NCBI GenBank assembly: GCA_000004695.1 | Contig: CM000150.2 | Coordinates: 1,888,001-1,952,000, forward strand | Origin: Dictyostelium discoideum | Taxonomy: Eukaryota | Direction: 5' to 3' | DNA: 64,000 nucleotides | Shown here: positions 5,274-40,100 of the stretch, in pieces | How the letters are laid out: each line of letters starts with the position of its first letter | Position numbering within the stretch: position 1 is the first letter of the stretch | The notes under the pieces: generated by a model | What the model was told of the DNA's origin: nothing | Databases searched by the model: none | The model's input: only the letters and a program-made list of their open reading frames with translations | Program-made: the position numbers and the translations under genes

Positions 5274-5643
5274 TTTTTTTGAGTGAATTTAATATTGAGC
5301 CTTTTGGAATTGGTTGAATGTAACATTCAATCCTAACAGTTGTCGAGGAAATTGCGCTACACGAGGAGTAATAACCAATCTTTAACATTAATGGTGTTGA
5401 ATTTTTTGAATTGTTGGGTAATGAAAAAATAAGAATGAAAAAGTTTTAATTTAATTTTTTTTTTTTTTTTATTATTTTTTTTTTGTGATATTATTCGGTG
5501 GTATTCGTTGGGAAAGTGTTTGAAAAAGATTTTTTTTTTTTTTTAAAATTATTATTTTCTTCTTTGGTTGAAATAAAAAATTCAAAAATAGTAATTCAGA
5601 GTAAGGGCATAATTTGATAATTGTAAAACGAGTTTTGGATTTG

Positions 5644-5805
5644 TTAAATTCCACCTTTTGGACCAAGTTTATTAATCAATGAAGCTATCATTTTTAAATT
5701 ATTTCCAAAATTAATTTGAACTGATTTAGAATTAATTTCAAATGTTGTGTTTGAAGATAATGATGATGACGATTTATTTGAAATTTTAGTTAAAGTAGTG
5801 AAAAT
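5644..5805 (-). CDS. Small-ORF family member, type a, 53 aa: MIFTTLTKISNKSSSSLSSNTTFEINSKSVQINFGNNLKMIASLINKLGPKGGI.
   Basis: ATG to TAA lies inside repeat unit 1a and is paralogous to five other copies. It diverges from the type-b copy at 7260 across a shared intergenic region of about 1.45 kb. Confidence 0.45.
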   Translation of the reverse strand: MFTTLTKISNKSSSSLSSNTTFEINSKSVQINFGNNLKMIASLINKLGPKGGI

Positions 5806-6279
5806 CATTTTTTAATTGAATATATTTTATTGAAAAAGAAATATTAGATTTTTTTTGATTTTATTTTTTTTTTGATTTATTTGGATAATGAAATAAAATT
5901 AATTTTCATTTTTGATTAAATAGTTTTTTTTCTTTTTTTTTTTTTTTTATTTAATTGTTTTAAAAAAAAAAAATAGAAATTTAAAATAAATAAATAAATA
6001 AATAAAAAGTTATAAATGGAACCGATATTCACAGTATAGTTATTTAACAAATAAATGTTTTCGATAATAATAATTTTAAAAATGAATAAGTAAGTTAAAT
6101 GAGGATTATCTAATCATTTTAATTTTTGATTAAATCAGATTGAAGAGGTATTACCAACTGAAAAATTATAAATATAATGATAGTACCAATTTTATTGTGT
6201 AAAAAATAATAATCGTTTATACACCCAATTTTATAAATTACTCCACAATACAAAAATTATTTCACCCCACATATTTCTT

Positions 6280-6321
<42 letters not shown>

Positions 6322-6492
6322 GGGTTGAACAGAATTATTTTAGTTAGAATTTAAATTAATTGTTTAAAAATAATTAATATATAAATAAATTTTTGATCAT
6401 TTGTAAATAATTATAACAAAGTATTTTGGTTTTAATTTCAAATAAAAAAAATAATATTACTTTTAAAAGAAGTTAGAATTTTAGATTATTGG

Positions 6493-6528
<36 letters not shown>

Positions 6529-7259
6529 AATATAATTTTAGGTTCAAAGGAATTAAAGATTATTATAAAGAAAAAAATAATTTCATTGGAATTTTGTTTT
6601 TGTTTTTCTAATTATATAGAATTTTTTTTTTTTTTTTAAACAAATAATTATTAATCATTGAATTGAGTTTTTTTTTTTTTTATATTGAAAACCTTAAATT
6701 ATTTTGTTAAACCACTTAAAAAAAAATGAAAAAATAATTAATAAATAAAAACAAATAATTTAAAAATAAAAAAAGGGGTGAATTATGTGTTTGTAATTTG
6801 TGGATTACTCACGATTAAAAGTGAAATATTTGTGTAAAAATGAATTTTATTTGTTCAATAAATAATTGTACTGAATAACCACTATCATAATATTGTTATT
6901 CTTCAGTTGAATATTTATTTTTGATTTTATTCTCTCAATCACTCATATCCAATTATATCATCAATATAATGTTAAGATTAACTTATTTCTCATTTTTTAT
7001 TTTATACATTCTCAAACATCTACTTGTTAAATTCTATTTTTAACATTTATAATTTATTTTTTATTATTTTATATTATATTTTATTATTTTTTTTTAAAAG
7101 TATTTAATAAAAAAAAATGATTTTTCATTTCTTTTCATTATTCAATACAAATAAAATATTATAAAATATAATACAATTAATTAAATAATATAATTTAATA
7201 TAAAAATATAATTTAATTTAATAATTAATAAAAATAAAAATAAAAAATTTAAATAAAAA

Positions 7260-7433
7260 ATGATTTTCACTTCATTAACTAAAATTTTAAATAAATCTTC
7301 ATCATCATCCTTAAATAAAACCTTTGATATTGACCAAAAATCAATTGCAATTAATTTTGAAAAATCAAATATTCAAGTTTATACAGTTTTAAATCCACTT
7401 GGTCCTCAAGGTGGTGTAGGCCCATACTTTTGA
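7260..7433 (+). CDS. Small-ORF family member, type b, 57 aa: MIFTSLTKILNKSSSSSLNKTFDIDQKSIAINFEKSNIQVYTVLNPLGPQGGVGPYF.
   Basis: A complete ATG..TGA ORF conserved in four near-identical paralogues. Differences among copies are mostly conservative or silent. Confidence 0.5.
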   Translation: MIFTSLTKILNKSSSSSLNKTFDIDQKSIAINFEKSNIQVYTVLNPLGPQGGVGPYF

Positions 7434-8311
7434 TTTTATTTTAATCCAAAGAAGAAAAAAAAGATTTCCATCAAACTCTACAAAACAAAACTTTCCGAAT
7501 CAAATATAACCAACCATATGGGTTTAAAAACGAATTTAAAAATCGAAAAACAAAAAAATAAACTATTAAATAAAATTTATACTTTAATTTTAAAATCTAT
7601 TTTTTATTTTAAAGCCTATTATTTTTTTTATTTTATTTTTTATTTTTAAAAAAAAACTAAAAATTAAAAACTAATTAATACTGATTTAATAATAAATTAT
7701 TCATAACACGAGTTTTTGTTTGTTTTACAAGGCGAAAAAAAAAATCAAAAAGAAGAATTAGTTGTTTTGGTCATTTTATTTGCCAAAAAAAAAATTTAAA
7801 AAAAAAATTAAAAAAAAGAAAAGAATAATTTTGAGTTTTTTTTTTAAAACTAAATAACCAAATTAATTGTTTTAGTCATAATATTTATTTTTATAAATTT
7901 AGTTTTATTATTTTTTAACTATTTTTAAGATTTTTCTCATTTTATTTTTATTAATTATTTTCATCATTTTAATTATCACTTTATTTTTATTAGAAATTCT
8001 CATAATTTTAAGAATTTTATTTTTTTGAAAAAGAAGAATAAAAACATAAAAAACTAAAAAAAAATAACTGTAAAAAAAAGAAAGTTTTATTTAATTTTTA
8101 TTTTATTTTATTTTATTTTATTTTTATTTTATTTAATTTTTATTTTTTGTGATTTATATTATTCGGTGGTATTTGTTGGGAAAGTGTTTGAAAAAGTTTT
8201 TTCTTTTTTTTAAAATTATTATTTTCTTCTTTGATCGAAATAAAAAAATTCAAATATGGTCATTCAGAGTAAGGATATAATTTGATAATTGTAAAACGAG
8301 TTTTGGATTTG

Positions 8312-8476
8312 TTAAATTCCACCTTTTGGACCAAGTTTATTAATCAATGAAGCTATCATTTTTAAATTATTTCCAAAATCAATTTGAACTGATTTAGAAT
8401 TAATTTCAAATGTTGTGTTTGAAGATAAAGATGATGATGATTTATTTGAAATTTTAGTTAAAGTAGTGAAAATCAT
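8312..8476 (-). CDS. Small-ORF family member, type a, second copy; it differs from the first by N to D in ...VQIDFGNN...
   Basis: Paralogue of 5644..5805, inside repeat unit 1b. Confidence 0.45.
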   Translation of the reverse strand: MIFTTLTKISNKSSSSLSSNTTFEINSKSVQIDFGNNLKMIASLINKLGPKGGI

Positions 8477-9614
8477 TTTTAAATTGAAAAAGAAATATTA
8501 GATTTTCTATTTTTATTTTTATTTTGTTTTGATTTATTTGGATAATGAATTAAAAAGAATTTTCATTTTTGATTAAATAGTTTTTTTTTTTTTATTTAAT
8601 TGTTTAAAATAAAAAAAAATTAAAAAAAAGTTATATATAGAACTAATAATCACAGTATAGTTATTAACAAATAAATGTTGGATATTAAAAATTAATTATT
8701 TAAAAATAACTAATATAAATAAATATTAGATCATTTTGTAAATAATTTTACCAAAGTATTTTAATTTCAATTTAAAAATTTGTATTACTTTCAAAAGAAT
8801 TAGGAATTTAAGATTTAAAAAAAAAAAAAAAAAAAAAAAATTTAATATAATTTTAGGTTCAAAGGGACTTAAAGGAATTAAAGATTATTTTAGAGAAAAA
8901 AAATGATTTCATTGGAATTTTGTTTTTATTTTTTTATTTTAATTTTATAGAATTATTGATTTTTTTTTTTTTTTAACAAATAATTATTAATCATTGAATT
9001 GAGTTTTTTTTTTTTTAATAATTGAAATCTTAAATTAATTTGTTCAACCACTTGAAAAAAATTTAAAAAAATGAAAAAATAATTAAAAAAATAAAAAAAA
9101 TAAAAAAAATAAAAAACAAATTATTTTAAAATAAAAAAGGGGTGAATTATGTGTTTGTAATTTGTGGATTCGTCACAATCAAAAGTGAAATATTTGTGTA
9201 AAAATGAAAATTATTTGTTCAATAAATAATTGTACTGAATAGCAACTATCATAATATTGTTATTCTTCAGTTGAGTATTTATTTTTGATTTTATTCTCTC
9301 AATCACTTAGATCCAATTATATCATCAATATAATATTAAGATTAACTTATTTCTCGTTTTTTATTTTTACATTCGCAAGCATCGACTTGTTAAATTCTAT
9401 TTTTAACATTTATAATTTATTTTTTATTATTTTATATTATTTTTTTTATTTCAAAGTATTTAATAAAAAAAAAAAAATGATTTTTCATTTCTATTCATTA
9501 TTTAATACAAATAAAATATTATAAAATATTATAAAATTAATTAATCAATATAATTTAATATAAAAATATAATTTAATTTAATATAATTAATAAAAGTAAA
9601 AATTTAAATAAAAA

Positions 9615-9791
9615 ATGATTTTCACTTCATTAACTAAAATTTTAAATAAATCTTCATCATCATCCTTAAATAAAACCTTTGATATTGACCAAAAATCAAT
9701 TGCAATTAATTTTGAAAAATCAAATATTCAAGTTTTTTCAGTTTTAAATAATCCACTTGGTCCTCAAGGTGGTGTTGGCCCATACTTTTGA
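9615..9791 (+). CDS. Small-ORF family member, type b, second copy, 58 aa (...NIQVFSVLNNPLGPQGGVGPYF).
   Basis: Paralogue of 7260..7433, inside repeat unit 1b. Confidence 0.5.
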   Translation: MIFTSLTKILNKSSSSSLNKTFDIDQKSIAINFEKSNIQVFSVLNNPLGPQGGVGPYF

Positions 9792-10656
9792 TTTTATTTT
9801 AATCCAAAGAAGAAAAAAAAGATTTCTACAAAACAAAACTTTCCGAATCTAATATAACCACCCATATGGGTTTATAAAAAAATTACAAACGAATATAAAA
9901 ATCGAATAACAAAAAAATAAATTATTAAAAAAATTTTATTCTTTAATTTTAAATCTATAAATATATTTTTTTTTTCTTTTTTTTTTTTTTTTTCAAAAGA
10001 TAGTACTATTTTTTATTATAAAATAACTTTAATTGTGACCAATTTAGAATATTGTTGGTTGTAATTTAATTTGATTAATTGATGATCAACTAATTCGATA
10101 ACTGATTTATTAAATTTCAATTCCACAGAAATATTGTCGCCTTTAGTTGAAATTTGTGAATCATTTAATTTGCATTTCAATTATTGGAGTTGAGTGATTG
10201 AAAGTGTAATTTTTACCATTTGGCCATTAATTCATCGGAATAGAACATGTTCTTACTTTTTGATGAATTTATACAGTTGAAATCCAACTCCAACCTAGTT
10301 AAAGCAAATGACCATTTCGAGTAATATCAATAACATTTGTTTGACTTGTTTAATATTAAAATTAATACATTAATTTATTAAAATACTCACTTATATTTAA
10401 TGCAAAATTAAAAAAATTATAATGAAATAAATAAAAAATATTGGTTTAATCTCTTTTTGTTTTTATTTTTTTTTTTTTTTATTTATTTTTTTAAAGAATT
10501 AAAATTTGTTAATGTTTATTCTATTTTTAACATTATAGCCCATAATTAAATACACCACAATAAAAATGATAATAAAATACAAAAATTTAAACATTCCCAC
10601 TTTAACAACACAAATCAAATACACAATAAAAATGTTGGAAAATGATTTTGGTTTAC

Positions 10657-10687
<31 letters not shown>

Positions 10688-10793
10688 TTTTTTTTTTATT
10701 ATTTTACAAACAATTATAGTAATTTCTTTTGTTATATTTGTTACTATTATCTTGTATATATAAGTATATTATTATTTATATTACTTTTGGTTA

Positions 10794-10936
10794 TTAAGAT
10801 TCGAAATATTTGGAAAAGAAACCTTTTATAATCGGAGTTTGATTACTTGGGCTTTGATTATTTGGAGTTGTAGAATTATTATTGTTATTACTATTATTAT
10901 TGAGATTGTTATTATTATTAATATTATTATTATTAC

Positions 10937-11023
<87 letters not shown>

Positions 11024-11152
11024 TATTATTATTATTATTATTATTGTTATTATTATTGTTATTATTACCACTATTATTTGGAGGTATTGTGGGCGTGTTA
11101 TTATTATTATTACTACTACTGTTAATATTATTATTATTATTATTAATATTAA

Positions 11153-11189
<37 letters not shown>

Positions 11190-12495
11190 ATTATTATTAT
11201 TATTATTATTCGCAATTGAAGATTGTAAAACTGTAGTTGTTACAGGTGAAGATGAACCAGATGAAGGTTTTAATTTATTTAACAAACTATTACTAGTGCT
11301 ATTGCTATTGGTTATGGAATTTTCACTTTTTAAATTATTTGTATTAACAGAATGATTATTATTATTATTATTATTATTATTAATATTATTATTATTATCG
11401 TTACTAATAATATTATTATTATTTCCTCCATCATGTACAGTTGAATTATTTGGACTTGTCCTTCCACTATTGTTTGAATTAACACTTGAATTTGGTGATG
11501 TTGGTGAAGATAATGATGCAAATGGATTGAAAAATCTAATTGCATAGGACTGTCCAGATTCTAAAACATTCTCTGTATTTAATTTAAATGTTTTATTCTT
11601 TAATGATAATGCTGTGGAATAAATAGTATGAAAATCAATTGTATTTGGATAAGCTTGTAATAGCTTTAATGAATCTGCAAATGATGATTTTAAAATTTGA
11701 TCTCTTACACAACTAAAAAAAATTAAAATGAAAAAAATAAATTAATTAATAATTCTATTGATTTATATATATAATTTAATTTATATATAACTTTTCACCT
11801 ACATTAACATTGAACAACAGAAAAAATATAATAAATCAAATCTATTTGGATCTGAAAATAATGCATCCCATAATCTTAATACATCTGGTAATTCAAATTC
11901 TTGGGATAATAATAATGTAATCCATCTAAAGCTATAAAATTGTGGATTCAATTTTTTATCTTCCTATAAAATTATAATTATTATTAGCATAATGATGATG
12001 ATGATGATTATTTTTTTTTATTTTTTTTCTTTTTTAAATAAAACTTACTAAATCAGTCCATAATTCTAAATCATTATCTTTTAAAATTCTATTTAATTTT
12101 TTAATACTACTGATGATACCAACATCAGATCTATCTAGAGTTTTACAAAAGTTATCACGAATTTCACTCATTAAACTTGTGAAACAATAGAATGAATCTG
12201 CTTCTGCATTTTTTTTACAATCTTGATCAGGATCAGTTGCAAAAATGTAATAAACATGACCCAATATTTCATTCATACCTTGAACGTATTTAATACCTGG
12301 ATTCAATTTTGCATAAATAAATAGAATACGTCTTAATGCCTCATAATGAATTGATTTACCATCCTCTTGTTGATAATTAAAGAAATGCATTGATGGAAAT
12401 GTTCTTCTAACATCTTTTTCAATATCTATTAATATGTTTTGATCTTTCCAATATTCATTCCATTTACTATCTGTTTGAACACTTAATGGCTAAAA

Positions 12496-12527
<32 letters not shown>

Positions 12528-13011
12528 TAAAAATAATAACAATAATAATAAATTAATATAAAATATATGATATTTATATATATATATATATGTGATGTAT
12601 ATAAAATAACATACATGATCAAATTCTTCTTGTTTTGGTGGTGGTGAATCACCTTTATATGGGTCAATCATTAATTCATTAATAAAATCTTGATAACCAT
12701 TTCTACTTTTTTTTAAATGAATTTCCCATTGTGTTCTATCTAATGGTAAATATCTTAATAAAATCTAAATTGTACGAATTTATTTATATTATTTAATATT
12801 AGTATTTTTAAAAACAATGATTATTATTATTATTAATATTTTAATTAATTTTTATTTTTTTCCATACCTTCCAATAACATGCTCTTAAACCGTGTGATTC
12901 TGGAATTCCTTGCTCTGCAAGATGTTGGATGATACTAATATCAATTGATGATGGCTTTAATGCTTCCTTATAATAGTGAACTCTTTCATTAAATGATGGA
13001 ATGGATGACAT
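10794..13011 (-). CDS. TBC-domain Rab GTPase-activating protein, five exons: 13011..12868, 12769..12615, 12489..12049, 11963..11803 and 11712..10794. It has a long Asn-rich C-terminal tail.
   Basis: The TBC catalytic motifs are present: arginine finger IDIEKDVRRTFP and glutamine finger YVQGMNEILG. Other TBC signatures are RACYWK at the N-terminus and FYSFRWITLLLSQEF. All introns carry GTATGG, GTATGT, GTAAGT or GTAGGT donors and AG acceptors, and all keep the frame. The final exon carries about 100 Asn residues, encoded by (AAT)n read from the (ATT)n plus-strand tract at 10880-11215. Confidence 0.85.
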
Positions 13012-13920
13012 TCTTTATTTTATTTTATTTATTTTTTTTAAATTGATTGAAGAAAAAAAAAAAAAAAAAAATGAAAAAAAGAAAATAAAAATTATTAAAA
13101 TGGGATTAAATTAAAAAAAAAAAATAAAAAAAATAAAAAAAATTATAATTTCTTGTTTTTAATTAATTTTTATTATTATAATTCTTATAAAACTAAAATA
13201 ATGTTTATGTGTTTTTTTTTTTTTTTTTTTTTTTTTGATATGTTTATTATTAAACCACCTTTCAAGTGTCAAAATTTTTAAAAAAAATAAAAAAAAAAAA
13301 AAAAAAAAATTTAAAAATAAAAAAAAAAAAAATTTAAAAATACAAAAAAAAAAAAAAATTTAAAATAAAAAAACTCTGAGAGTTTATTTTAATAAAAGTA
13401 ATAATAAATAAAATAGAGTTTATTTTAATAAAAGTAATAATAAAACCTTTTTTTTATTTTTTCCTTTTATTATTATTATTTTTTTATTATTTGTTTTTTT
13501 ATTTTTTTTATTTATTTTTTTATTTTTTATTTTTTTTATTTATTTTTTTTATTAATAAAAATAAAAGAAAAATACTAAAAACATAAAAATATTATTGTTT
13601 ACCATTAGTATTTTAATAACTATTCTTTATATAGAATTTTTAAATTTCGATGCAAAACCCTCCCAATTTTCTTTTTTTTTTTTTTTAATTTAAATTTATT
13701 ATTTTTAATTTTTTTTTTTTTTTTTTAATTTTTTTTTTTTTTTTAAATTTTTTTTTTTTTTTTCAAATATTTTCAAATTTTTTAACTGTCAAAAATTAAA
13801 TATTTGAAGTGAAAAATACAATTCGGATTATTATGAAAATTTATTAAAATTTCATTGATAATTTTTGTTTTTTTTTTTTTAATCTTACACATCAATATAT
13901 ATTTCTAAAAAAAAAATATA

Positions 13921-14587
13921 ATGTCCACTTCACCAACACATCATCAACAACAACAACAACAACATCAAACTTCACCAACGCACAATCAACACACTTCACC
14001 AACACATCAGCAACAACAACAACAACAACAACAACAACCAACTTCACCAATACACCAACAACAACAAAAACAAACTTCACCGACACACAATCAACCAACT
14101 TCACCAACAAATTCCTCAACTACAACAACAACAACCACAACAAATACAAATACATTAAAAACTCCAACCGACTTAATTAAAGAGAAATGTGAATCATCAT
14201 TACAACAACCTGATTCAATCATGTCAATTGAAGCATCATCCTTAATGAAAGAATACATCACAGTTGGTGGTAGACCACAAGTAAGTTATATTATTATTAT
14301 TATTATTATTAATAACCATAATAATAATTAAAATCATAAACTAATATATTATTGTGTGTGTGTGTGTGTGTAATAATTTAGGATGTTATTACATTTTTAT
14401 CGGAAAGTTATAGAGGATATGCACAAATGTGTAATTTATTATGTTATTGGTTAAAGATAGCAGGTATACCAGAAGAACAAATTCAAACTCAATTTTCAAA
14501 TCATTTAAAAGAAATCATAATAAATAAATTTGATCCAAAAGTTGCTGATACTATTTTTACTTCTGTATGTGTTATATCTTTATACCA

Positions 14588-14624
<37 letters not shown>

Positions 14625-16275
14625 ACAAATTTATTAATATATTAATAATTAATAATATATAGTCTAGTACACCACCACATTGGTTAGATGAAATGATAGT
14701 TGATTCACAATGGAGATCACTTATATATCAATTATCAGAAGAACATAAGAATTGTTTAATGTTAAATTTCATAATTCAAAGAATATCAGATTCAGGTTAT
14801 CAAAATGAAATTGCATCATTAAGTACTGCCTCAACATACTATAGAGTTTTTAATAAAGTTTTATTCGATTCATTAGCGGATTTAGTAACATTGGATGAAA
14901 TTTCATTTCGTCAACAATTGGATGAATTTAAAAAATCATGTTGTCAACATCAACATACTTATTTATACGCTCAAGCAACAATTCAAAATTTAATTAAAAA
15001 TAATCCTCAAAAAGCTTATAATTTAAAAAGAATTTCTCAAGAATTAGAAATAGAAGCAACTAAAAAGTAAAAAAAAAAAAAAAAATTCAAAATAATATAT
15101 AATTTATTATTATTATAATTACTAACTTTTTTATTTTATTTTATTTTTTTTTTTTTTTAGAAATAAAATTGCACAAAGAATTTCGTTAATGATGTCAAAT
15201 ATATCACAATATCCATTAATATCATCAAGTATAACATCATTGCTAATGAGTAATACAACAACAACAGGTGATATAATTAAATTATATAATGAATATACAA
15301 AAGCTCAACCACCACCAGTCGATTTTTTAAGGTATCCAAATTTATTGGAACTATTATTGAGTGATTTATTTTGTCCTGGTAAAGTCATTCAAAGTGTACA
15401 TAAGAGTAAATGGATTTATTTAGTGACCTATAGTGTTTGTATTAATAGTAGTAGTAGTAGCAATGAGAAAGATAATAATGTATTTAAAGATATTACACGT
15501 GCAATTGAAATAGTTCATAATATTTGTCAATCGAATCCATTAGGTTCAGAATTACAATCAGTTGTTGGTACTCTAAAAGATCATTTAGACTTTCCAATCA
15601 TTTCAATGGGTATAATGCAATGGATTAAACATAATCTTACTGACACTACAAATCTTTCAAGTTATAATACTTTATGTGTACCAATTTATTTAGATTTCTT
15701 AAGAGATGTAAGTTGTTTATTTATTTATTTATTTAAAAAAGTAAATTAATTTATTAACATATTTTTTTGAATAATAAAAATAATAGATTTGTTTAAGACA
15801 TCCATTACATAGATCAGTTGTATTAAATATATTAGTATCACATTTTGAAGTTGAAGCACAAGATTTAGAATCATTGGCAATATTAGAGATGAGAAAGAAT
15901 GTAATTGATAATATAGTTTATTTATTTAGTTGTGGTTATGTTATACCAGTTTTAGATACAATTGAAAGTTGGGCACCAAAAATTGATCCTTCCTTAACTC
16001 GTTACTTTATAAATCAAGTTTTAGATATAATCGAACCACCTTATTCTCAATCATTTATGGATAAAATGAAATCAATCATTAAAATCATTAATCCATTTGG
16101 TGAAAGTACAAAATTGGAACCATCTGTTCAAAGTTTTTTAGATCAATGTAAAAATCAATTAATTTTAAATAATAATAATAATAACAATAATAATAATTTA
16201 TCAACAAAAACTTCAACAAAAAGAAATAATACTGAAATTTATAATAATGAAGATGAAAATGAACAAGTATTTTAA
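13921..16275 (+). CDS. Negative elongation factor C/D (NELF-C/D, TH1-like), five exons: 13921..14280, 14382..14564, 14663..15066, 15161..15707 and 15787..16275.
   Basis: The ORF aligns to human NELFCD. GYAQMCNLLCYWL aligns to GFAQMANLLAEWL. KFDPKVADTIFT aligns to HFDPRKADSIFT. CLMLNF is identical. YQNEIASLSTAS aligns to YQGEITSVSTAC. HTYLYAQA aligns to HTYLFAQA. PPPVDFLRYP aligns to PPPVELIRVP. GYVIPVL aligns to GYVLPVV. Donors are GTAAGT, GTATGT, GTAAAA and GTAAGT. Intron 1 holds (GT)10 and intron 2 holds (TA)15. The N-terminal 90 aa are a His/Gln/Thr/Ser/Pro-rich low-complexity region. Confidence 0.8.
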
Positions 16276-16710
16276 TAAAAATAAAATAAAATAAAAAATC
16301 AAAGTCAAAATTAAAAAAAAATGAATTATGACATTCTAAAAAGCATATGTGTGAAAAAAAAAAAAAAAAGATATTTTTAGAACGATATGAGGTATAAAAA
16401 ACTGAATTTGAAATTGAAAAAAAAAAAAAAAAATAAAAAATTAAATAAATAAATTTAAAAATAACCTAACTGACGTTACATTTTTTTGTACCTTTTTAAC
16501 AATTCATTGAATTGTACCGATATCATTTTAAAATTTTTTTTTTTATTTTTTATTTTTTATTTTTTTTTTTTTTTTTTCTAATTCATTAAAAAAAAAAACA
16601 TAATAAAATTTTCAATTTTTGTAAAAAACACACAAATATAAAAACATATATATATATATATATATAAAAATTTAATTAATTAAATAAATTTATATTTTTA
16701 CGATTGTATA

Positions 16711-29466: not shown

Positions 29467-29497
<31 letters not shown>

Positions 29498-30642: not shown

Positions 30643-30673
<31 letters not shown>

Positions 30674-31356
30674 GTAGTAGTAATAGTAGTCAACAACAGC
30701 AACAGCAACAGCAATCAAATAAAAAAAATAAAAATAAAAATAAAAATAAAAATACACAATCAAATAATAATAATAATAATAATAATATACAACAACAACA
30801 ACAACAACAAGCACCACCACCACCACCACCAACAATTGAAAGAACATTATTAGTTGCATATCATACTGCTGTAAGAGCAATGTTTAGATTTTTAGTAGTA
30901 TTGAAACAAAATGGTAAAATTGTTGACCCAGTTTGTGATTTTGGTAATGATGATCTTAGATTTATGAAAAAGTTTGAACCATTTTTCAATCCACCTTATC
31001 AACAACCTGAACCATTGACAAATGAAATTTGTAAGAATTCAACAAAAACTAATGAACCTTGGATATCTTTAGTGATTACAACTTTGGATATATTAAAACA
31101 AAGTAAATCCGCTATAGATGTATTACTATTACCAGAATCTAAATTTAATGTTCCAATTCCTTTCTACCAAGTCGAGGAAGCAAAACAATTACAACGTTCA
31201 ATTCTTTCAATGCGTTTACAAATTCAAAAGTTATTACCATCATTTGATCTATCAAAATTAACAATTGAAAAAGTTTTAGCATTACCAATTCCTAAATTTT
31301 CTGTTCAAATCGAAACAAAACCTTATTTCCCAAATATTAATATTAAATTAGATTAA
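28625..31356 (+). CDS. N-alpha-acetyltransferase 35 (NatC auxiliary subunit, MAK10 family), four exons: 28625..28849, about 28939..29450, 29538..30080 and 30151..31356.
   Basis: WVDALPILKEASNDMYLGQLIHSNDFQLESATHSLE aligns to human NAA35 [47 protein letters not shown] aligns to MMDPKMDAG. LPMTLFSCMYLH aligns to LAQTVFTCLYIH. QHYLFLGFELDIYSYHEF aligns to IQYLLSGFELELYSMHEY. LNRARQRRKL aligns to HNRARQRDKL. Donors are GTAAGT at 28850, GTAAGT at 29451 and GTAAAT at 30081. The exon 1/2 junction cannot be closed in frame with canonical sites (see findings). Confidence 0.75.
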
Positions 31357-31913
31357 AAAAAAAAAATTAAAAAAAAAAAAAATTAAAAAAACTATTTATA
31401 GAAAAAAAAAAAAAAAAAATTAAATAAAATAAAATAAAATAAAAATGAATAAAAAAAATGAAAAATCATATTTTATTATCTCTTTTTTTTTTTTTTTTTT
31501 TTTTTTTGGTATTATTTTTTTAAAAAGATATTTTCCCATTTTTTTTTTCGTCCATCCATTAAAATAAAAAACGTTAAAAACCACCTGGCTAAAATTTTTT
31601 TTTTTTTTTTTTTATTTTTTTTTATTTTTTTTTTTTTTTTGATAACTTTTCAAAATTTTTTTTTTAATACACCACTTATCCCACTCGCACTATCTCTGGG
31701 GAATAATTTTTATTCATAATCTTTTTTATTGAATACATTTAAATTAAATTCAGACTTTTTATTTTTATATTTTTTTTTTATGTTTGTTTATTAAAAAAAA
31801 AAAAAAAAAAAAGTAAAAAAAAATAAAAAATAAAAAAATAAAAAAAAAAATAAACAAATAAATAAATAAATAAAAATAAATAAAAAAATAAAAAAATATA
31901 TTGGGCCAAAAGG

Positions 31914-31960
<47 letters not shown>

Positions 31961-31973
31961 ACATAATATAAAA

Positions 31974-34900
31974 ATGACAACAAGAATAAATAATAATAGG
32001 AGTTCTTCACCGTCATTAAATAATCTAAGTCATCATAATAGTCATCATCTTAAAAAACCATCATCAATATTATCATCATCATCTTCATCATCACCATCTT
32101 TATTACCAAAAAATAATAATGATAATAATAATAATAATAATAATGATGGAGCAAATAAAATAAATAATAATAATAATAATAATAATGAAGAGAATAGTGG
32201 TAGTGGTAGTGGTAGTTCCCATAGTGGTAATATACCAATTGTAATATTAAAGAAAACTCCATTAGTTAAGAATGGTATTGAACTTGATTTTTCAGGTAAA
32301 GCAAGTAAAGAAGGTATTTTTTCATTATGGAGTAATGCATTAGAAAAAAAGAAATTAAATTATACATCAAAAGAAATGTCAATTTTAATTGAACCACCAG
32401 ATTCATCAACATTTTTAATTAATTCACCATTATTAAATAGTTCTGCAAATGGTTCAAAAATAAAATCATCAACAGCAACAACAAGACAATCCCAACAGCC
32501 ATTAGCACAACAAGAAGAGAATTCAACTTTATTCGAATTAACTCATCATTGTATATTCTTTCCAATTAATAGTAACAGTTTAATAATTAAAAAAGATATT
32601 GTCACAACAATGAATTATTATTTTTGTCAAATTATTAAAGAATCATCAACAAGTATTAAAATTATAATTAAAACATTATTTGAAGTATTTGGATTTTATT
32701 TAGATTTAGCTAGAAAATTAGAAGAGGATGAAAATAATGATTTAAGTAGTAATAGCAACACCAATAATGCCAATAGTAGTAATAGCAATAAAACAATGAT
32801 TTATTTAATAAATTCATTAGATAAATTAATTCAAGATAGTTTATTCACAAAATTTAGAGATCCAACAAATGAATTTCAATTATCATCAATTCAAAGATTA
32901 TTTATAAATATATTGACCGATCAATTGAAATCAATTAAAAATCAGTCAATGACAAGTATGATTTTTAATGATTGTATACAAAAATTTAATTTCATTTTAT
33001 CAATTGTAATTGAAAAAGTTGAACAATATAAAAACTCGGAAATAATTAAACAATCATTACGTTTAGATAAATATTTAGAGAAAACTTTATTTTTAAAATG
33101 TAAACATCTTTCAAGTAGAGAATACTTTTTAGCTCAATTAAAATTTAGAAAATTTTCAATTGATTATAATCAATATTATAAATCATTAACAAATTTTCAA
33201 CAATGGAAAAAACAAGAAGAATTAACAATTCAAAAATTATCACAACAAACACTTCAAAGAGATGAATATTTAAAAACTGTTTGGGGTATTAATAGTAGTG
33301 GTGGTAGTAGTAGTAGTAAAAATAATAAAAATTTTGATAATTCACCAATTGGTGTTATTGTAATTAAAGTGGTTTCAGCACGTGATTTAATTCAAAAAGA
33401 ATCACAATCAATTAAACCTGAATCATTTGTTGAAGTAGAATTCATTTCAAATTCATCAAAAGATTTTAATAAAAAGAAAAGAACTAAAAAAATTAATAGT
33501 TTAAATCCAATTTGGAAAGAACATTTTAGTTTTCAAATTACAAAACAACAATTAAATGATGAAATTGAATTAACAATTTGGGATTCATCAACATCATCAT
33601 CAACATCATCATCATCATCATCATCATCATCTTTATCAACTGATAAATTTAATTTTCAAGGTAAATGTAAATTTATAGTTAAAGATTTAATGATTTATTT
33701 AAAAAGAGAAGTTAATTGGTATCCACTTCAAAAAAGAACATCAAGAAGTAAAGTTAGTGGTGATTTAAAATTACAATTTAATTATTTACCATATCCAGAA
33801 GCATCACCTGATAAAGTTATAAATTATGTTTATTATTTACAAATATTATTAGATAAATTAATTGAAATTGATTCAAATTCAAATTTTAATCCAATTAATT
33901 TAAATAATGATGATTTAAATAATAATGGTAGTAGTAATAGTAGTGGTAGTAGTAGTGGTGGTAATATATCACCAATATTAAAAAAACAACAACAACAACA
34001 ACAACAACCAATAATTTTATCAAATCAATCAAATTTATTATTAAAAGAATTTTGTGAAAGATATGGTATAATGGAACATACTTTAAAATTATTTTATATG
34101 AAAAGATTAGTAGTTTCAACTATAAAATATTTATCATTAGAATATATTCCAGAGATTAGATTAATTTTAAAGAATACATTAGAGATAAAATTTGGTGAGA
34201 TTGGTTTAACACAAGAAGAGGATGAAATATTAAAAGAATCAGTTTCAGCACTTTCACAAGCTTGTAAAAGTTGGATTTCACATTATCATTCAGTTTTTCC
34301 ATTAAATCAACCCGCTGGTTCCCTAAGAATGTTAATCGATATTTATTATCTTTTAAAGAATTCTGAATTATCAATTTTACCACCATTACAAGATTTAATT
34401 AAAGAAACTTATTTAAATCGTTATAAACAAGCAATTATAATGTCAAATGATATTGGTAAATTAAATAGTTCAATTATTGTACCATCTGTAAAATTAAATC
34501 AACAACAACAACAACAACAACAACAACAAAAACAAGAAGATATTATTGATACAAAAGCATCAAAATTAATTAGAATTTGTGATATTTTATTATACAATTT
34601 AGAAATTGATAAAAAATATTTTTCAAGAGAATTTCCAAATGATTCACCAATTTTATTAATTTCAATTGAAGTTTATACAAATGAAATTTCAAAAGAGATT
34701 GATGAACTTTTAGAAAAAGGTTCAAATAGTTCAAATGAATTACAAGATTTCTTTCAACTTTATTTGAAATTAAAAGAGACAATGACTAAATTTAAAGAGA
34801 TTTATCCAAAGTTAGTATTGTTACCAATTCCAATTTTATTTAAACAAGTAATTATGCAATGGACTTTATTTTGTGCAGATCAATTGAAACAAGTTATAGA

Positions 34901-36218
34901 TAGATTATGTACCAATGAAAAATGGACACCTGTATCCTCTGATACTTTACATTCTGCTTCTGTTGGTGAGGTGATTTTAGGTTGTTATCATGCATTGGAT
35001 GTTATTAAAAGTTTGAGATGGGAAGATTTAATTAGGGATGATTATCATAAGAATAGTCATCATTCTCTATTTGAAATATTTGCAAATTTTACAATGGTGG
35101 TATCGGAATCTGTAATTTACTATACAAAGGTTATTAAAGATTTAAGTTTATCTGCATTGGATCAAGCTGCTGATGATATTTTCAAATTATCTGAATCTTA
35201 TTCTCAAGGTTTAGAACAAACCATTCAAAAGGTGTCATTACGTTTTAATAATATTCAAGCTTGTATTGGTCATGCTGAAGATTTAATTCAAGTGTTGATT
35301 AGAATCATGTCATCATATAAACTTTCAACAACAATCGTCAATGAAATGGCAACAAATACCTACAAGGCAATTAGCGCCAATGTTAGGACATTGGTTGATA
35401 GGATCTATGATAGGCTATCACCTGTGATTCAAGGTGAAATCTATAAAATCATTGGTATAGAATTAGATGATGGAAAGAATAAAAATAACATTGTTTTGGA
35501 TTTCTTTCAAAAGATTGAAAAAGGCTTTGAAGATGTTAAAACTAAAACAAGTTCTGCTGTGGGTGCTGCTGTTGGTAATTCTGAACTATATTACCTAAAC
35601 CAAGATAAATTACCAATCACCGTCAGATTAGAACCACTATTGAATTATATTGCTTCAAAATTAAAATTATTCTCTCAATATCTTTATTATCCATTGACAA
35701 AGTTATTGTTGAAAAGATGTTTCTATGGAATAATGCACGAGATTGAAGTCATTGTTTTCCCATCAAATAAAAAGTTGGTGTTGACAATGAATCAATTGGA
35801 TAAAATTGAAGCATTAATTAAAACTTTTAGTGAATTCTTTTTGGTTGATGGTGAAGGTTTATCTCAAAAAGCAATCGATAAACAATCTCAGGGTTTCATG
35901 ATTATAGTTTTGGCTTACAGAGAGGCTCTCAATAGTGGTGTTCATGATTTCGATCCATTAGGTTTAAAAATGGCTTTAAGAAATATTAATTTTACAAACT
36001 TAAAACCAGATTTAACTTATTTAAAGAAATTAAATATCAATCTAAAAGAAATTCCAAAACAATTGGATGTTTTCTCTCTCATTAAGAAATCTGTAGAAAA
36101 AAGACAAGAAGATAAAAAGAAAAGAGATGAATTAAGAAAACAAAGAAAATTAAATAAGAGTATTGGTTATTTAAATGAAAATCAACAATCTCAGAAATTT
36201 GATCCACCACCAAATTAA
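31974..36218 (+). CDS. Large C2-domain protein (1414 aa) with Munc13-homology (MUN/MHD)-like regions, of the Unc13/BAIAP3/CAPS type. Single exon.
   Basis: One uninterrupted ORF. The C2 domain is at about aa 450-560 (IGVIVIKVVSARDL...LNPIWKEHFSFQI...ELTIWDSS). Long helical regions follow, with MHD-like blocks (MLIDIYYLLKNSELS..., QLYLKLKETMTKFKEIYPKLVL...). There are N-terminal poly-Ser/Asn tracts and a K/R-rich C-terminus. The MUN call is from memory of the family, not from an alignment. Confidence 0.55.
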   Translation: MTTRINNNRSSSPSLNNLSHHNSHHLKKPSSILSSSSSSSPSLLPKNNNDNNNNNNNDGANKINNNNNNNNEENSGSGSGSSHSGNIPIVILKKTPLVKNGIELDFSGKASKEGIFSLWSNALEKKKLNYTSKEMSILIEPPDSSTFLINSPLLNSSANGSKIKSSTATTRQSQQPLAQQEENSTLFELTHHCIFFPINSNSLIIKKDIVTTMNYYFCQIIKESSTSIKIIIKTLFEVFGFYLDLARKLEEDENNDLSSNSNTNNANSSNSNKTMIYLINSLDKLIQDSLFTKFRDPTNEFQLSSIQRLFINILTDQLKSIKNQSMTSMIFNDCIQKFNFILSIVIEKVEQYKNSEIIKQSLRLDKYLEKTLFLKCKHLSSREYFLAQLKFRKFSIDYNQYYKSLTNFQQWKKQEELTIQKLSQQTLQRDEYLKTVWGINSSGGSSSSKNNKNFDNSPIGVIVIKVVSARDLIQKESQSIKPESFVEVEFISNSSKDFNKKKRTKKINSLNPIWKEHFSFQITKQQLNDEIELTIWDSSTSSSTSSSSSSSSSLSTDKFNFQGKCKFIVKDLMIYLKREVNWYPLQKRTSRSKVSGDLKLQFNYLPYPEASPDKVINYVYYLQILLDKLIEIDSNSNFNPINLNNDDLNNNGSSNSSGSSSGGNISPILKKQQQQQQQPIILSNQSNLLLKEFCERYGIMEHTLKLFYMKRLVVSTIKYLSLEYIPEIRLILKNTLEIKFGEIGLTQEEDEILKESVSALSQACKSWISHYHSVFPLNQPAGSLRMLIDIYYLLKNSELSILPPLQDLIKETYLNRYKQAIIMSNDIGKLNSSIIVPSVKLNQQQQQQQQQQKQEDIIDTKASKLIRICDILLYNLEIDKKYFSREFPNDSPILLISIEVYTNEISKEIDELLEKGSNSSNELQDFFQLYLKLKETMTKFKEIYPKLVLLPIPILFKQVIMQWTLFCADQLKQVIDRLCTNEKWTPVSSDTLHSASVGEVILGCYHALDVIKSLRWEDLIRDDYHKNSHHSLFEIFANFTMVVSESVIYYTKVIKDLSLSALDQAADDIFKLSESYSQGLEQTIQKVSLRFNNIQACIGHAEDLIQVLIRIMSSYKLSTTIVNEMATNTYKAISANVRTLVDRIYDRLSPVIQGEIYKIIGIELDDGKNKNNIVLDFFQKIEKGFEDVKTKTSSAVGAAVGNSELYYLNQDKLPITVRLEPLLNYIASKLKLFSQYLYYPLTKLLLKRCFYGIMHEIEVIVFPSNKKLVLTMNQLDKIEALIKTFSEFFLVDGEGLSQKAIDKQSQGFMIIVLAYREALNSGVHDFDPLGLKMALRNINFTNLKPDLTYLKKLNINLKEIPKQLDVFSLIKKSVEKRQEDKKKRDELRKQRKLNKSIGYLNENQQSQKFDPPPN

Positions 36219-36639
36219 TACAAAAAAAAAAATATATATATAATAAAACAAAGTAATCTTGATTAAATTAATCAAAATCTTAGAAAAATAAAATAATCAT
36301 TATAATGATTTAAAAATAGATTAAATAATAGTTTTTTTTTTTTTTTTATTAAATTAAAAATCACCAGCTCTTGTAAAAGAGACAAAAGTTTGTGTTATCA
36401 ATAATTTAGTAATATTTATTAGTTTTTTTCTAAAATAAAAAAAAATAAAAAAAAAAAAAAAAATAATTAACTTCTTCTTTCTTTCTTTTTATTTTTTAGG
36501 ATTAATTCCACAATTAAAATCTTTAGTTTATTATAAAAATTTACCAACTCATTCACATCTTGATTTTGTATGTATTTTTTTTTTTTAAAAAAACCTATCT
36601 CCAAAAAAAAAAAAATTATTTTTTAAAATTAAAGAATTT

Positions 36640-37603
36640 TTATTTAATTTGTTTTTTGTTTTTCGATTTATATATTTGTTTATAATTTATTTTATAGTCT
36701 GGTTGGTTATATTTGATTCGGAAAGTTTTGTTTGGTATACACTTTTTTTTCTTTGGATTAAAATAAAATCAAAAGTATGGACCGACTCCACCTTGAGGAC
36801 CGAGTGGATTATTTAAAATGGTAGTACTTTGAACATTTGATTTTTCAAAATTAATTGCAATTGATTTGGAATTGTTATCAAAGGTTTTACTTAAGGTTGA
36901 TGATGATGAGGATTTATTTAAAATTTTAGTTAATGAAGTGAAAATCATTTTTTATTTTAGTGTAGTACTATTTTTATTATCTTGTTTAATTAAATTATAT
37001 TTTAATATTATATTTTAATATTTTATTATTATATTTTATTTTGTTTTGTTTTATTTATTTGAATAATGAATAGAAATGAAAAATCATTTTTTTTTAAATA
37101 CTTTAAAAAATAATAATATAAAAAATAATTAAATAATAAAATATAAAATAATAAAAAAAAAATAATAAATGTTAAAAATAGAATTTAACAAGTCGATGCT
37201 TGCGAATGTAAAAATAAAAAACGAGAAATAAGTTAATCTTAACATTATATTGATGATATAATTTGATCTAAGTGATGGAGAGAATATAATCAAAAATAAA
37301 TATTCAACTGAAGAATAACAATATTATGATAGTTGTCTTTCGGTATAGTTATTTATTGAACAAATAAAATTCATTTTTACACAAATGTTTCACTTTTAAT
37401 TGTGACGAATCCACAAATTACAAACACATAATTCACCCCTTTTTATATTTTTAAATTATTTGTTTTTATTTATTAATTGTTTTTATTTTTTTAATTATTT
37501 TTTTCATTTTTTTTATTTTTTTTTTAAGTGGTTGAACAAATTAATTTAAGGTTCCAAAATTAAATAAAAAAAAAATTAAAAAAACTCAATTCAATGAGTA
37601 ATT

Positions 37604-37635
<32 letters not shown>

Positions 37636-37860
37636 TCAATAATTGATTTTTTTTTTATTTTACTAATAATAATTCTTTTAAATTAAAAAAAATCAATTTT
37701 TTTTTTATTTTAATAATAATAATTCTATAAAATTAAAAAATCAATAATCTTAAATTTTTTTTTTTCAATAATCTTAAATTCCTACTTCTTTTGAAAGTAA
37801 TATTAATTTTTTTAATTGAAATGAAAATACTTTAGTAAAATTATTTACAAAATGATGCTG
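36640..37860 (-). repeat. Repeat unit 2a, an inverted copy of the 6360-7560 part of unit 1.
   Basis: 37160-37440 is the reverse complement of 6790-7040/9130-9400 (ACTGAATAACCACTATCATAATATTGTTATTCTTCAGTTGA...). 36660-36960 is the reverse complement of 7260-7560. Confidence 0.8.
36769..36948 (-). CDS. Small-ORF family member, type b, third copy, 59 aa: MIFTSLTKILNKSSSSSTLSKTFDNNSKSIAINFEKSNVQSTTILNNPLGPQGGVGPYF.
   Basis: Inside inverted repeat unit 2a. Confidence 0.5.
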   Translation of the reverse strand: MIFTSLTKILNKSSSSSTLSKTFDNNSKSIAINFEKSNVQSTTILNNPLGPQGGVGPYF

Positions 37861-38589
37861 TGCTGCCATCAGGTATTTCCAAATCAAAAAGTAGATTATA
37901 TGTCCTCCAATCATTAAAACCCTCTGGAAAATTCATTTTTGTTGTTTTTTCTATATGAGTTTTGCTTAGAAGTGTTTTTTTTCAAATTTTCATTTTATTT
38001 TTTTTTTGAAATATTAATGATAATAATAATTGAATTAAAAATATAATATACAAAATTTTAAAAAAAACCCCCCCAAAAAAAAAAATAAAAATATTTACAC
38101 CAACTTTTCATTTTTACATAAAATTTAATGTTAGTACCAATTTTATTGTGATTCACCCAATTATAAAAACTAATACAAAAATTATTTCACCCTACATATT
38201 ACTTTAATTAATTTTTTTTTTTTTTTTTTTTTTTTTGGGGGTTTAACAAAATTATTTTAGTTTGAATTTAAATTAATTATTTTTAAAAAAACTAAAACAC
38301 AAATTATTCTTTTTCTTTTTTTGATTTTTTTAATTTTTTTAATTTTTGTTTGGTCTAAAGATCAAATAAAATGACTAAAACAATTAATTCTTCTTTTTGA
38401 TTTTTTTTTTGCCAAAAATTCAAGTTATGAAAAATTTAGAATTAAATCGGAATTAATTAATTTTTAATTTTTAATTTTTAGTTTTTTTTTTAAAAATAAT
38501 AAAAAATAATAAAAAATAATAAACTTTAATATGTAATTATACTATCTTTAAAATAAAAAATAGAAAAAAAAAAAAAAATTATAATTATA

Positions 38590-40100
38590 GTATAAATTAG
38601 TTTATTTTTTTGTTTTTCGATTTTTATATTCGTTTATAAACCCATATGGTTGGTTATATTTGATTCGGAAAGTTTTGTTTTGTAGAGTTTGATGGAAATC
38701 TTTTTTTTCTTCTTTAGATTAAAATAAAATCAAAAGTATGGGCCAACACCACCTTGTGGACCAAGTGGATTATTTAAAACTCTATAAACTTGAATATTTG
38801 ATTTTTCAAAAGTAATTGCAATTGATTTTTGGTCAATATCAAAGGTTTTATTTAAGGTTGATGATGATGAGGATTTATTTAAAATTTTAGTTAATGAAGT
38901 GAAAATCATTTTTTATTTAATTTATATTTTTATTTTTATTAATTATATTAAATTAAATTATATTTTTATATTAAATTATAATATTTTATTTTATTTTATT
39001 TTATTTGTATTGAATAATGAATAGAAATGAAAAATCATTTTTTTTTTTTTTAAATACTTTAAAAAAAAAAAAAAATAATAAAAAATAAAAATTAAATGTT
39101 AAAAATAGAATTTAACAAGTCGATGCTTGCAAATGTAAAATAAAAAAACGAGAAATAAGTTAATCTTAATATTATATTGATGATATAGTTGGATCTAAGT
39201 GATGGAAAGAATAAAATCAAAAATAAATATTCAACTGAAGAATAACAATATTATGATAGTTGTTATTCGGTACAATTGTTTATTGAACAAATAATTTTCA
39301 TTTTTACACAAATATTTCACTTTTAATCGTGACGAATCCAGAAATTACAAACACACAATTCACCCCCTTTTTTATTTTTTAATTATTTGTTTTTATTTTT
39401 TAATTATTTTTTTATTTTTTCATTTTTTTATTTTTTTTTAAGTGGTTGAACAAATTAATTTAAGGTTTCAATTATTAAAAATAAAAAAAAAAACTCAATT
39501 CAATGATTAATAATTATTTTTTTAAAAAAAAAAAAAAAATCAATAATTCAATAAAATTAAAAATAAAAAATAAAAATAAGATTCCAATGAAATAATTTTT
39601 TTTCTTTAACATAATTCCTAGGATCTAAACTTATATTAAAAATTTTTTTTTTTTTTTTCAATAATCTTAAATTCCTCCTTCTTTTGAAAGTAATATTAAA
39701 TTTTTTAATAGAAACTAAAACACTTTGGTAAAATTATTTACAAAATGGTTAAATATATATTAATCATTTTTAAATAATTAATTTTTAAATTCCAAATAAA
39801 ATAATTATGTTCAACCCCAAAAAAAAAAAAATAAAAAAAAAAATTAAAATAAAAATTAAAGTAATGGGTGAAATAATTATTGTATTGTGGAATGATTTAT
39901 ATAATTATGTGTATAAATGATTATTATTTTTTACACAATAAAATTGGTATATCATTATATTGGTAATTTTTCAGTTGGTAATACCTCATCGATCTGATTT
40001 AATCAAAAATTAAAATGATTAGATAATCCTCATTTAACTTATTTTTAATTATTTAAAATATTATTTTCGAAAACATTGATTTGTTAAATAACTATACTGT
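38590..40100 (-). repeat. Repeat unit 2b, inverted, including an inverted copy of the 290-bp sub-element at 39790-40100. A plus-orientation partial copy of the sub-element sits at 38100-38290.
   Basis: 38590-38930 is the reverse complement of 7260-7600. 39790-39830 (CAACCCC) mirrors 6320-6330 (GGGGTTGAACAG). 38150-38290 copies 6190-6340 in direct orientation. Confidence 0.75.
38730..38909 (-). CDS. Small-ORF family member, type b, fourth copy, 59 aa (...KSIAITFEKSNIQVYRVLNNPLGPQGGVGPYF).
   Basis: Inside inverted repeat unit 2b. Confidence 0.5.
   Translation of the reverse strand: MIFTSLTKILNKSSSSSTLNKTFDIDQKSIAITFEKSNIQVYRVLNNPLGPQGGVGPYF

Follow-up and report, generated by a model that had tools for sequence, protein, structure and literature searches.

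The repeats that bracket a 26-kb segment of Dictyostelium discoideum chromosome 1 are probably copies of one complete small gene, a member of a young coding family specific to this species, and the inverted repeat that they form around the segment is best read as a by-product of duplication and not as a mobile structure. This interpretation is carried by the anatomy of the repeat units, the coding constraint on their open reading frames (ORFs), their distribution over several loci, and the absence of units at the site of block 2 in Dictyostelium citrinum. The stretch of DNA analysed, hereafter the window, comprises 64 kb of chromosome 1 of D. discoideum AX4. The outcome is mainly a clean-up, in which a striking inverted-repeat architecture resolves into ordinary duplicated orphan genes that were already annotated in AX4.

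Self-blastn and a repeat search of the window recovered four b-type and two a-type units, at the positions given in the first-pass annotation. Direct matches link 5444–6120 with 8106–8737 and 6353–7652 with 8689–9998 in block 1, and 36603–37854 with 38566–39747 in block 2. Inverted matches connect the two blocks, pairing 5987–7857 with 40146–38273 (1968 nt), 6396–7610 with 37856–36606, and 8678–10018 with 39795–38527, while inside block 1 self-blast also pairs 5702–6343 with 7363–6693 in inverted orientation. The identity of 90–95% first ascribed to the units holds for b1, b2 and b4 with gap columns ignored (91–93%), but not for b3 (85–86%), nor with gaps counted (73–83%). Ungapped sub-blocks reach 86–96%. 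Neutral divergence in the spacers amounts to 0.12 among b1, b2 and b4, and to 0.21 for b3. The genes previously named in the single-copy segment were confirmed by Pfam in the case of TH1/NELF-C/D, purple acid phosphatase, PAP2, NAA35 and C2, and by a YVQGMN motif only in the case of TBC. An artefact of assembly is ruled out, since both blocks and their spacing recur in an independent D. discoideum assembly at 99.5–99.7% identity. The one other strain compared, which is nearly identical to AX4, has the same arrangement and gives no sign of the recombination-prone behaviour suggested at first. Folding of the GC-rich island at 5125–5400 gave no significant structure.

Table 1. Features of the repeat units in the window (positions counted from its first nucleotide).
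Feature	Positions	Strand	Remarks
a1 3' flank/UTR region, left end of block 1	5444–5643	-	homology with 8106–8311 starts here; boundary in a T-run, without TIR or TSD
a1 ORF, 54 aa	5644–5808	-	DDB_G0268670 (assigned by gene order)
Pa1, a-type conserved upstream block	6008–6270	-	core of the "290-bp sub-element"; homologous to b-type P (alignment, self-blast)
Pb1, conserved non-coding block of ~290 nt	6770–7060	+	~200 nt upstream of b1 ATG; nhmmer match
Proximal conserved element with mini-uORF (MIFHFFSLFNTNKIL)	7117–7164	+	143 nt upstream of b1 ATG
b1 ORF, 57 aa	7260–7433	+	DDB_G0268672
b1 conserved 3' region	7434–7620	+	probable 3'UTR with AATAAA; sub-block identity 96%
a2 3' flank	8106–8311	-	self-blastn
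a2 ORF, 54 aa	8312–8476	-	DDB_G0268674
Pb2 conserved upstream block	9134–9422	+	nhmmer
b2 ORF, 58 aa	9615–9791	+	DDB_G0268676
b2 3' region, right end of block 1	9792–10018	+	
b3 3' region, left end of block 2	36603–36768	-	
b3 ORF, 59 aa	36769–36948	-	DDB_G0268688; most diverged chromosome 1 b copy
Pb3 conserved upstream block	37157–37444	-	nhmmer
Orphan a-type P block, truncated (distal half only)	38121–38312	-	without ORF; oriented as Pa1
b4 ORF, 59 aa	38730–38909	-	DDB_G0268690
Pb4 conserved upstream block	39083–39371	-	nhmmer
a-type P block without a ORF	39795–40146	+	points at neighbouring 911-aa gene

A unit of about 1.2 kb is composed of the P block (~290 nt), a proximal element containing a short upstream ORF (uORF), the ORF itself, and a conserved 3' stretch of about 190 nt. 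P, the proximal element with its uORF, and the 3' region are kept in a-type, b-type, chromosome 3-type and L014 copies, and the proximal element and uORF (10–18 codons) were present in all ten family members examined. All six ORFs of the window are complete, with 54–59 aa, and lie exactly where they had been described. The head-to-head arrangement of a and b copies over roughly 1.45 kb is likewise real, the start codons of a1 and b1 being 1451 nt apart and those of a2 and b2 1138 nt. The variable "290-bp sub-element" of the earlier description does exist, but it is not a separate element, as it represents the a-type form of the upstream block common to all units. A profile of b-type P (nhmmer) missed the a-type blocks, and their homology is visible only by direct alignment, in which Pa1 and b-type P have the motifs GGGTGAA..GTGGA..TTCAGTTG in common. 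In a2, the Pa block is largely deleted, with a remnant at about 8627–8690. No family ORF was detected by tblastn near the orphan P block at 38121–38312. Pb1-type blocks differ by 0.055–0.15 with practically no indels, and six-frame translation of P from six copies revealed no frame open throughout. A GT..AG intron inside P was considered and set aside, as there is no fall in conservation from one possible splice site to the other. P would act as the promoter or leader driving these genes.

All six ORFs of the window correspond to existing AX4 annotations of hypothetical proteins. At least four further members are known: DDB_G0278465 and DDB_G0278467 on chromosome 3, DDB_G0283179 on chromosome 4, and the unannotated P0017, a tenth member obtained from D. 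discoideum sequencing runs. AX4 thus annotates nine members, on chromosomes 1, 3 and 4. The suspicion that ORF-length filters would miss these genes is therefore wrong for AX4 (six of six annotated) and right for newer automatic annotations, which overlook family genes: that of GCA_054883475.1 calls no gene in block 1 or block 2, and that of GCA_054859355.1 calls one of three. Family ORFs are 53–61 aa long and display an N-terminal MIFTSLTKILNKSSSS, a central KSIxINFEKSN and a C-terminal NPLGxxGG. The layout b> <a b> is also found at a second locus, between the genes for alanyl-tRNA synthetase and Gad2. No homologue beyond D. discoideum-labelled data was found in a 5.8-billion word-indexed database or among 1.84 billion representative proteins, and a profile search of the latter returned family members and low-complexity long proteins, with nothing else credible. 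Pfam gave no match to the family peptides, and literature searched by gene ID, UniProt ID and topic does not mention the family genes. The family thus appears, as judged from sequence comparison, to be young, uncharacterised, protein-coding and restricted to D. discoideum. The gene-family cluster that had been proposed as one of two readings of the locus is supported.

The family ORFs evolve under moderate purifying selection. Of the ten copies nine are intact, and every coding indel has a length divisible by three; the a copy of L001 has a frameshift at its C-terminus. Pairwise dN/dS ranges from 0.12 to 0.8, with typical values of 0.4–0.5, and because the sequences are short, the power of these estimates is limited and the constraint is to be read as moderate. 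Synonymous differences exceed non-synonymous ones (pS > pN) in five of six comparisons by Fisher test (p = 0.0006–0.02), and changes at the three codon positions number 29, 32 and 46, with an excess at the third. In a neutral AT-biased simulation, about 9.5% of substitutions led to loss of the ORF; with at least 107 changes, the probability that all ORFs would be intact under neutrality is about 2e-5. Purifying selection on the peptide, as claimed at first, is accordingly supported by dN/dS below 1 and by the in-frame indels, only its strength being moderate, and the statement that substitutions are mostly conservative does not agree with a dN/dS of about 0.4–0.5. AlphaFold2 run on the family alignment returned no fold (pLDDT 51) and was uninformative; the peptides are presumably made and probably disordered.

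Comparison with D. citrinum bears directly on the origin of the inverted repeat. NAA35, C2 and a 934-aa gene follow one another in the same order in that species, and the interval between C2 and the 934-aa gene contains neither a unit nor a family ORF. The counterpart of 23.5–36.3 kb of the window is joined there to the same right-flank gene, repeat-free, and C2 and the right-flank gene have the same relative orientation as in D. discoideum, hence this junction is ancestral. The upstream region of the D. citrinum orthologue of the 911-aa gene is devoid of a P block. Whereas intergenic sequences of the two species cannot be aligned, neutral divergence among the units is 0.12–0.21, so that they seem to be of more recent origin than the split. 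An unrelated tandem gene pair occupies the C2-to-next-gene interval in D. citrinum.

The composite or mobile unit suggested by the first-pass annotation would require the repeats to be non-autonomous transposon copies (thug, DDT or Tdd-like) whose inverted blocks make the 26-kb segment mobile as a whole. We consider this very improbable. The units do occur on three chromosomes and in both orientations, the block-2 site is empty of them in D. citrinum, and orphan P fragments lie at 38121–38312 and 39795–40146. In these respects they resemble the transposons reportedly catalogued in D. discoideum (DDT, Tdd, thug, TRE, DIRS, Skipper and DGLT), which are dispersed, multi-copy, present in both orientations and in part truncated. 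Compared with the general features of those elements, the units have no enzymes of their own, no defined termini and no association with tRNA genes; their copy number is low, and nearly every copy harbours a host-like gene under purifying selection. Specifically, no transposase, reverse transcriptase or integrase ORF is present, non-family ORFs in the blocks being all of 82 aa or less, and neither TIRs nor TSDs were seen at unit or block boundaries, where ends vary by copy and fade into A/T runs. TRE elements target tRNA genes, and a tRNA scan found none in the 64-kb window. Nearly all of the about ten known copies retain an intact, selected ORF, and P and ORF diverge in parallel across a, b and L014 types, as the parts of one gene would. 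Finally, the repeat-free adjacency of C2 and the next gene in D. citrinum implies that the 26-kb segment was not brought in as a single piece.

The same adjacency without units leads us to reject an origin by inversion, in which inversion of the 26-kb segment, broken at one end within what was then one tandem array of units, would have split that array into two inverted blocks. Mutually inverted blocks of two units each are the classical signature of such an event; yet the junction of C2 with the right flank is ancestral, the units seem to postdate the species split, and the orphan P block at 38121–38312 is oriented wrongly for a simple inversion, which makes this scenario scarcely credible.

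A different question is whether the functional product is the peptide at all. Between chromosome 1 and chromosome 3-type copies, P diverges by 0.09–0.15 and is almost indel-free, versus 0.17–0.21 for the coding sequence. As P is conserved above the ORF, the primary function could reside in the non-coding part; selection would then act on P, or on a longer transcript that includes it, as an enhancer, an lncRNA or a leader with an intron, and the role of the small ORF would be secondary or regulatory. The uORF conserved in ten of ten members and the predicted lack of structure in the peptide point in the same direction. Against this, the ORF bears a coding signature of its own (in-frame indels, pS > pN, third-position excess, avoidance of stop codons), RNAalifold detected no covariation in P (one compensatory pair of 64; covariation term +1.65, a penalty), and Rfam has no match in the units, whether in the whole window at gathering scores or in the blocks at E ≤ 1. 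We regard a non-coding functional product as improbable. It is conceivable, if still rather unlikely, that the selected core is a cassette of three parts, namely P, more constrained than the ORF and serving either as a dense developmental enhancer or as a leader that is transcribed, the universal uORF, and the D. discoideum-specific micro-protein. In that case, duplicated P may also have supplanted the promoter region of the 911-aa gene: the copy at 39795–40146 stops 144 nt short of the ATG of that gene (40290) and is absent upstream of its D. citrinum orthologue. If true, the locus would combine very recent gene birth and expansion with promoter capture.

Under the preferred explanation, copies of one complete small gene, the order of events would be as follows. 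An old inverted duplication would have generated the head-to-head a/b pair, and the b> <a b> segment may then have been copied between chromosomes. On chromosome 1, units would have been copied in tandem, and at least two inverted copies would have entered the gap between C2 and the next gene, an insertion that would postdate the divergence from D. citrinum.

This is a lineage-specific gene-family cluster of an ordinary kind, made mildly interesting by the conservation of its promoter/leader block, and it has counterparts among known systems. In Dictyostelium, the small-protein families hssA/2C/7E and sigN occur in tandem or clustered copies. The present family is like them in consisting of very short Ser/Asn-rich, dictyostelid-only proteins with several clustered paralogues, and in having a hydrophobic/Ser N-terminus of the M-x-I/L-F/L-x-S-L/I type. 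It differs in that neither the profile search of 1.84 billion representatives nor Pfam revealed a sequence relationship, and in having an NPLGxxGG C-terminus and a P-block/uORF architecture of its own. The head-to-head a and b copies, whose upstream regions are inverted homologues with a P block each, also resemble divergent duplicated gene pairs with a common intergenic promoter region; what sets the a/b pair apart is that its two genes are paralogues by inverted duplication and that the pair as a whole has been re-duplicated at several loci. The family offers a compact example of micro-proteins with at least ten members, measurable purifying selection, and promoter/leader conservation extending beyond the coding sequence, and the C2-to-next-gene interval provides a case of gene turnover between sister species.

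The repeat units of this region probably constitute a lineage-specific family of small-protein genes expanded by segmental duplication, each unit comprising an entire gene that includes a strongly conserved putative promoter/leader block. Self-comparison of the window, which is AT-rich (15-33% GC) and which exact protein matches place on chromosome 1 of D. discoideum AX4, confirmed the repeat family reported in the first-pass annotation: two mutually inverted blocks of direct units flank a 26-kb single-copy segment, and their longest inverted alignment (5987-7857 versus 40146-38273) covers 1968 nt. The identity claimed there was too high, as the 1.2-kb b-unit is 91-93% identical among b1, b2 and b4 and 85-86% for b3 when gap columns are ignored, and 73-83% over 1.2 kb when gaps are counted (78-85% by BLAST). 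The two-block structure is real, since the independent D. discoideum assembly GCA_054883475.1 is collinear with window positions 1-12753 and 21954-46245 (L003 and L006, two loci of a single contig) at 99.5-99.7% identity and with equal spacing. Only five substitutions across both blocks separate this strain from AX4, which makes it a weak test of inversion polymorphism. The inverted arms share exact tracts of at most 79 nt, which are ill suited to support frequent recombination. Most other 'repeat families' of the window (D1, D2 and I7-I25) are long AAT/AAC-type repeats of 9-12 nt (codon-unit) period encoding poly-Asn tracts, typical of Dictyostelium low-complexity coding sequence. Between the b3 unit and an orphan P block, P being the ~290-nt conserved upstream block of the units, there is a short, unique sequence of raised GC content (GCTGTGCTGCCATCAGG...) that has no match elsewhere in the window.

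Features of the repeat blocks and their surroundings (window positions; rc, reverse complement)
Feature	Position	Identifier	Remark
Block 1	5444-10018		two direct units
Block 2	36603-40146		two direct units
a1 ORF		DDB_G0268670	type a; assigned by gene order
b1 ORF		DDB_G0268672	type b
a2 ORF		DDB_G0268674	type a
b2 ORF		DDB_G0268676	type b
b3 ORF		DDB_G0268688	type b
b4 ORF		DDB_G0268690	type b
P of b1	6770-7060		nhmmer E <=1e-72
P of b2	9134-9422		nhmmer E <=1e-72
P of b3	37157-37444 rc		nhmmer E <=1e-72
P of b4	39083-39371 rc		nhmmer E <=1e-72
a-type P	about 6008-6270		upstream of a1; complete
a-type P			upstream of a2; mostly deleted
a-type P	38121-38312		truncated orphan
a-type P	39795-40146		complete; no a ORF after; points at ATG (40290) of adjoining 911-aa gene
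uORF	7117-7164, 9477-9524		equivalent sites in all members
AAT/AAC-type repeats	3252-3660, 10782-11300, 40452-40942, 62237-62447		
Unique stretch	37857-37990		
GC-rich island	5125-5400		
82-aa ORF	5140-5388 (-)		
Class I RNA match	5133-5273 (+)		sub-threshold

An ORF scan of both blocks recovered the six small ORFs exactly as first described, and all six are carried in the AX4 annotation as hypothetical proteins. The suggestion that ORF-length filters would miss them thus fails for AX4 and holds for newer automatic annotations: that of GCA_054883475.1 has zero genes in either block (L003 14245-18314, L006 12883-19322), where all six ORFs match AX4 exactly, its pipeline evidently dropping ORFs of <60 aa, and one of the three family genes is called at L001, a locus in GCA_054859355.1. 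The latter assembly is labelled D. discoideum, yet its family members are ~10-12% different from the AX4 chromosome 3 proteins; exact aminotransferase and C2 proteins were not recovered from it, and it may represent a divergent lineage. Besides the chromosome 3 members DDB_G0278465 and DDB_G0278467, a family profile search of 1.84 billion representative proteins added DDB_G0283179 (chromosome 4, 71 aa, C-terminal motif duplicated) and P0017, an unannotated 53-aa member from sequencing runs also carrying an identical D. discoideum aminotransferase, with no credible member beyond D. discoideum-labelled data. No Pfam model matches the peptides, and a literature search by the gene and UniProt identifiers of the family found no mention of them.

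Alignment of the four chromosome 1 b-units with the two b-units of L001, which is flanked by the alanyl-tRNA synthetase and Gad2 genes and corresponds to the AX4 chromosome 3 pair, divides each unit into five parts: a variable spacer, P, an AT-rich stretch with a proximal element, the ORF, and ~190 nt of conserved 3' sequence. At L001 7039-7292, directly downstream of the alanyl-tRNA synthetase gene, there is also a 15-nt tandem repeat that translates as TIQYN. Substitution divergence between chromosome 1 and chromosome 3-type copies is 0.24-0.34 in the spacer, 0.16-0.29 in the 3' region, 0.17-0.21 in the ORF and 0.09-0.15 in P, which is nearly indel-free; P is therefore under the strongest constraint within the unit. 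No frame of P is open in all copies, its RNA structure has no covariation support, and it has no Rfam match; its position and conservation suggest a promoter. The diverged member L014 retains a degenerate P as well as the proximal element, so P has diverged together with the gene, of which it forms a part. The 'variable 290-bp sub-element' noted earlier is a real sequence, but proves to be the a-type version of P. Its last copy stops 144 nt short of the 911-aa gene's ATG, and nothing similar is seen upstream of the D. citrinum orthologue; the arrangement at 39795-40290 may represent promoter replacement or capture.

The proximal element holds the sole nearby upstream ATG, and a uORF of 10-18 codons opens from it in all ten members examined, a single conserved uORF preceding every main ATG by 60-156 nt. 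Its peptide is MIFHFYSLFNTNKIL-like in b-type and MKINFISLSK-like in a-type copies. The first uORF codons (ATGATTTTTCATTTC...) are similar to the main ORF start (ATGATTTTCACTTCA...), as if the uORF were a relic left when the 5' end of the CDS was partly duplicated. P and the proximal element would drive, and the uORF would perhaps tune, expression of a short, probably disordered protein.

Purifying selection on the peptides, also proposed from the first reading, is borne out at moderate strength by pairwise dN/dS of 0.12-0.8 (typically 0.4-0.5), by an excess of synonymous over non-synonymous change in five of six comparisons (Fisher p=0.0006-0.02) and by coding indels that are all multiples of three; minimum changes at the codon positions are 29/32/46. 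In a neutral AT-biased simulation the ORF is lost with a probability of ~0.095 per substitution, and given at least 107 changes on the family alignment, all copies would stay intact with a probability of ~2e-5, a figure somewhat biased by ascertainment where copies came from protein searches, although the six window copies were recognised as DNA repeats. The a copy of L001 is frameshifted. The peptide is probably disordered, because AlphaFold2 gives no confident fold for the family (pLDDT 51). Set beside these coding signatures, a primarily non-coding function of the units, with P as their most constrained part, seems unlikely.

The a and b genes, with their upstream regions, are inverted homologues (5702-6343 versus 7363-6693; dS ~0.6), and the b> <a b> layout is present both in the window (7260-9791) and at L001 (8149-10180), so that the a/b pair is older than the copying between chromosomes. 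Neutral spacer divergence on chromosome 1 is ~0.12 among b1, b2 and b4 and ~0.21 for b3, which calls for at least two separate events connecting the inverted blocks. D. citrinum (L004) shares with the window the collinear gene order NAA35, C2, 934-aa gene and cyclophilin-WD40 gene, and neither a unit nor a family ORF occurs in its 3.9-kb interval from C2 to the 934-aa gene. As this order is kept there without repeat units, the 26-kb segment has an ancestral junction on its right; the most likely origin of block 2 is a gain in the D. discoideum lineage, its loss in D. citrinum being a formal alternative.

The composite or mobile unit first envisaged, with the inverted blocks bracketing the segment, is not supported: the ancestral junction rejects arrival as one element, other ORFs in both blocks do not exceed 82 aa, a tRNA scan of the window found no tRNA genes, and neither terminal inverted repeats nor target duplications occur at unit or block boundaries, which vary from copy to copy and grade into A/T runs. 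Neither a non-autonomous transposon nor a composite unit is at all probable. A tandem array split by inversion would also yield two opposed blocks, but the same junction rejects this origin, which is likewise very improbable. The C2-to-934-aa-gene interval appears to be a hotspot for lineage-specific turnover of genes: at the position of block 2, D. citrinum carries two tandem minus-strand copies (L004 14470-16813; main exons 82% identical) of a two-exon gene for 221 aa, which has no Pfam match and no homologue in the window and is unrelated to the family.

Just left of block 1 lies a GC-rich island (~40% GC against a 15-20% GC background), with non-significant folding z-scores and no gene called in GCA_054883475.1. 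Its 82-aa ORF has no Pfam match, and the exact sequence is absent from the protein collection searched. On the opposite strand, a sub-threshold Rfam match to Dictyostelium Class I RNA (24.7 bits versus a gathering score of 41.5, E=0.25) spans a CUUACAGCAA motif.
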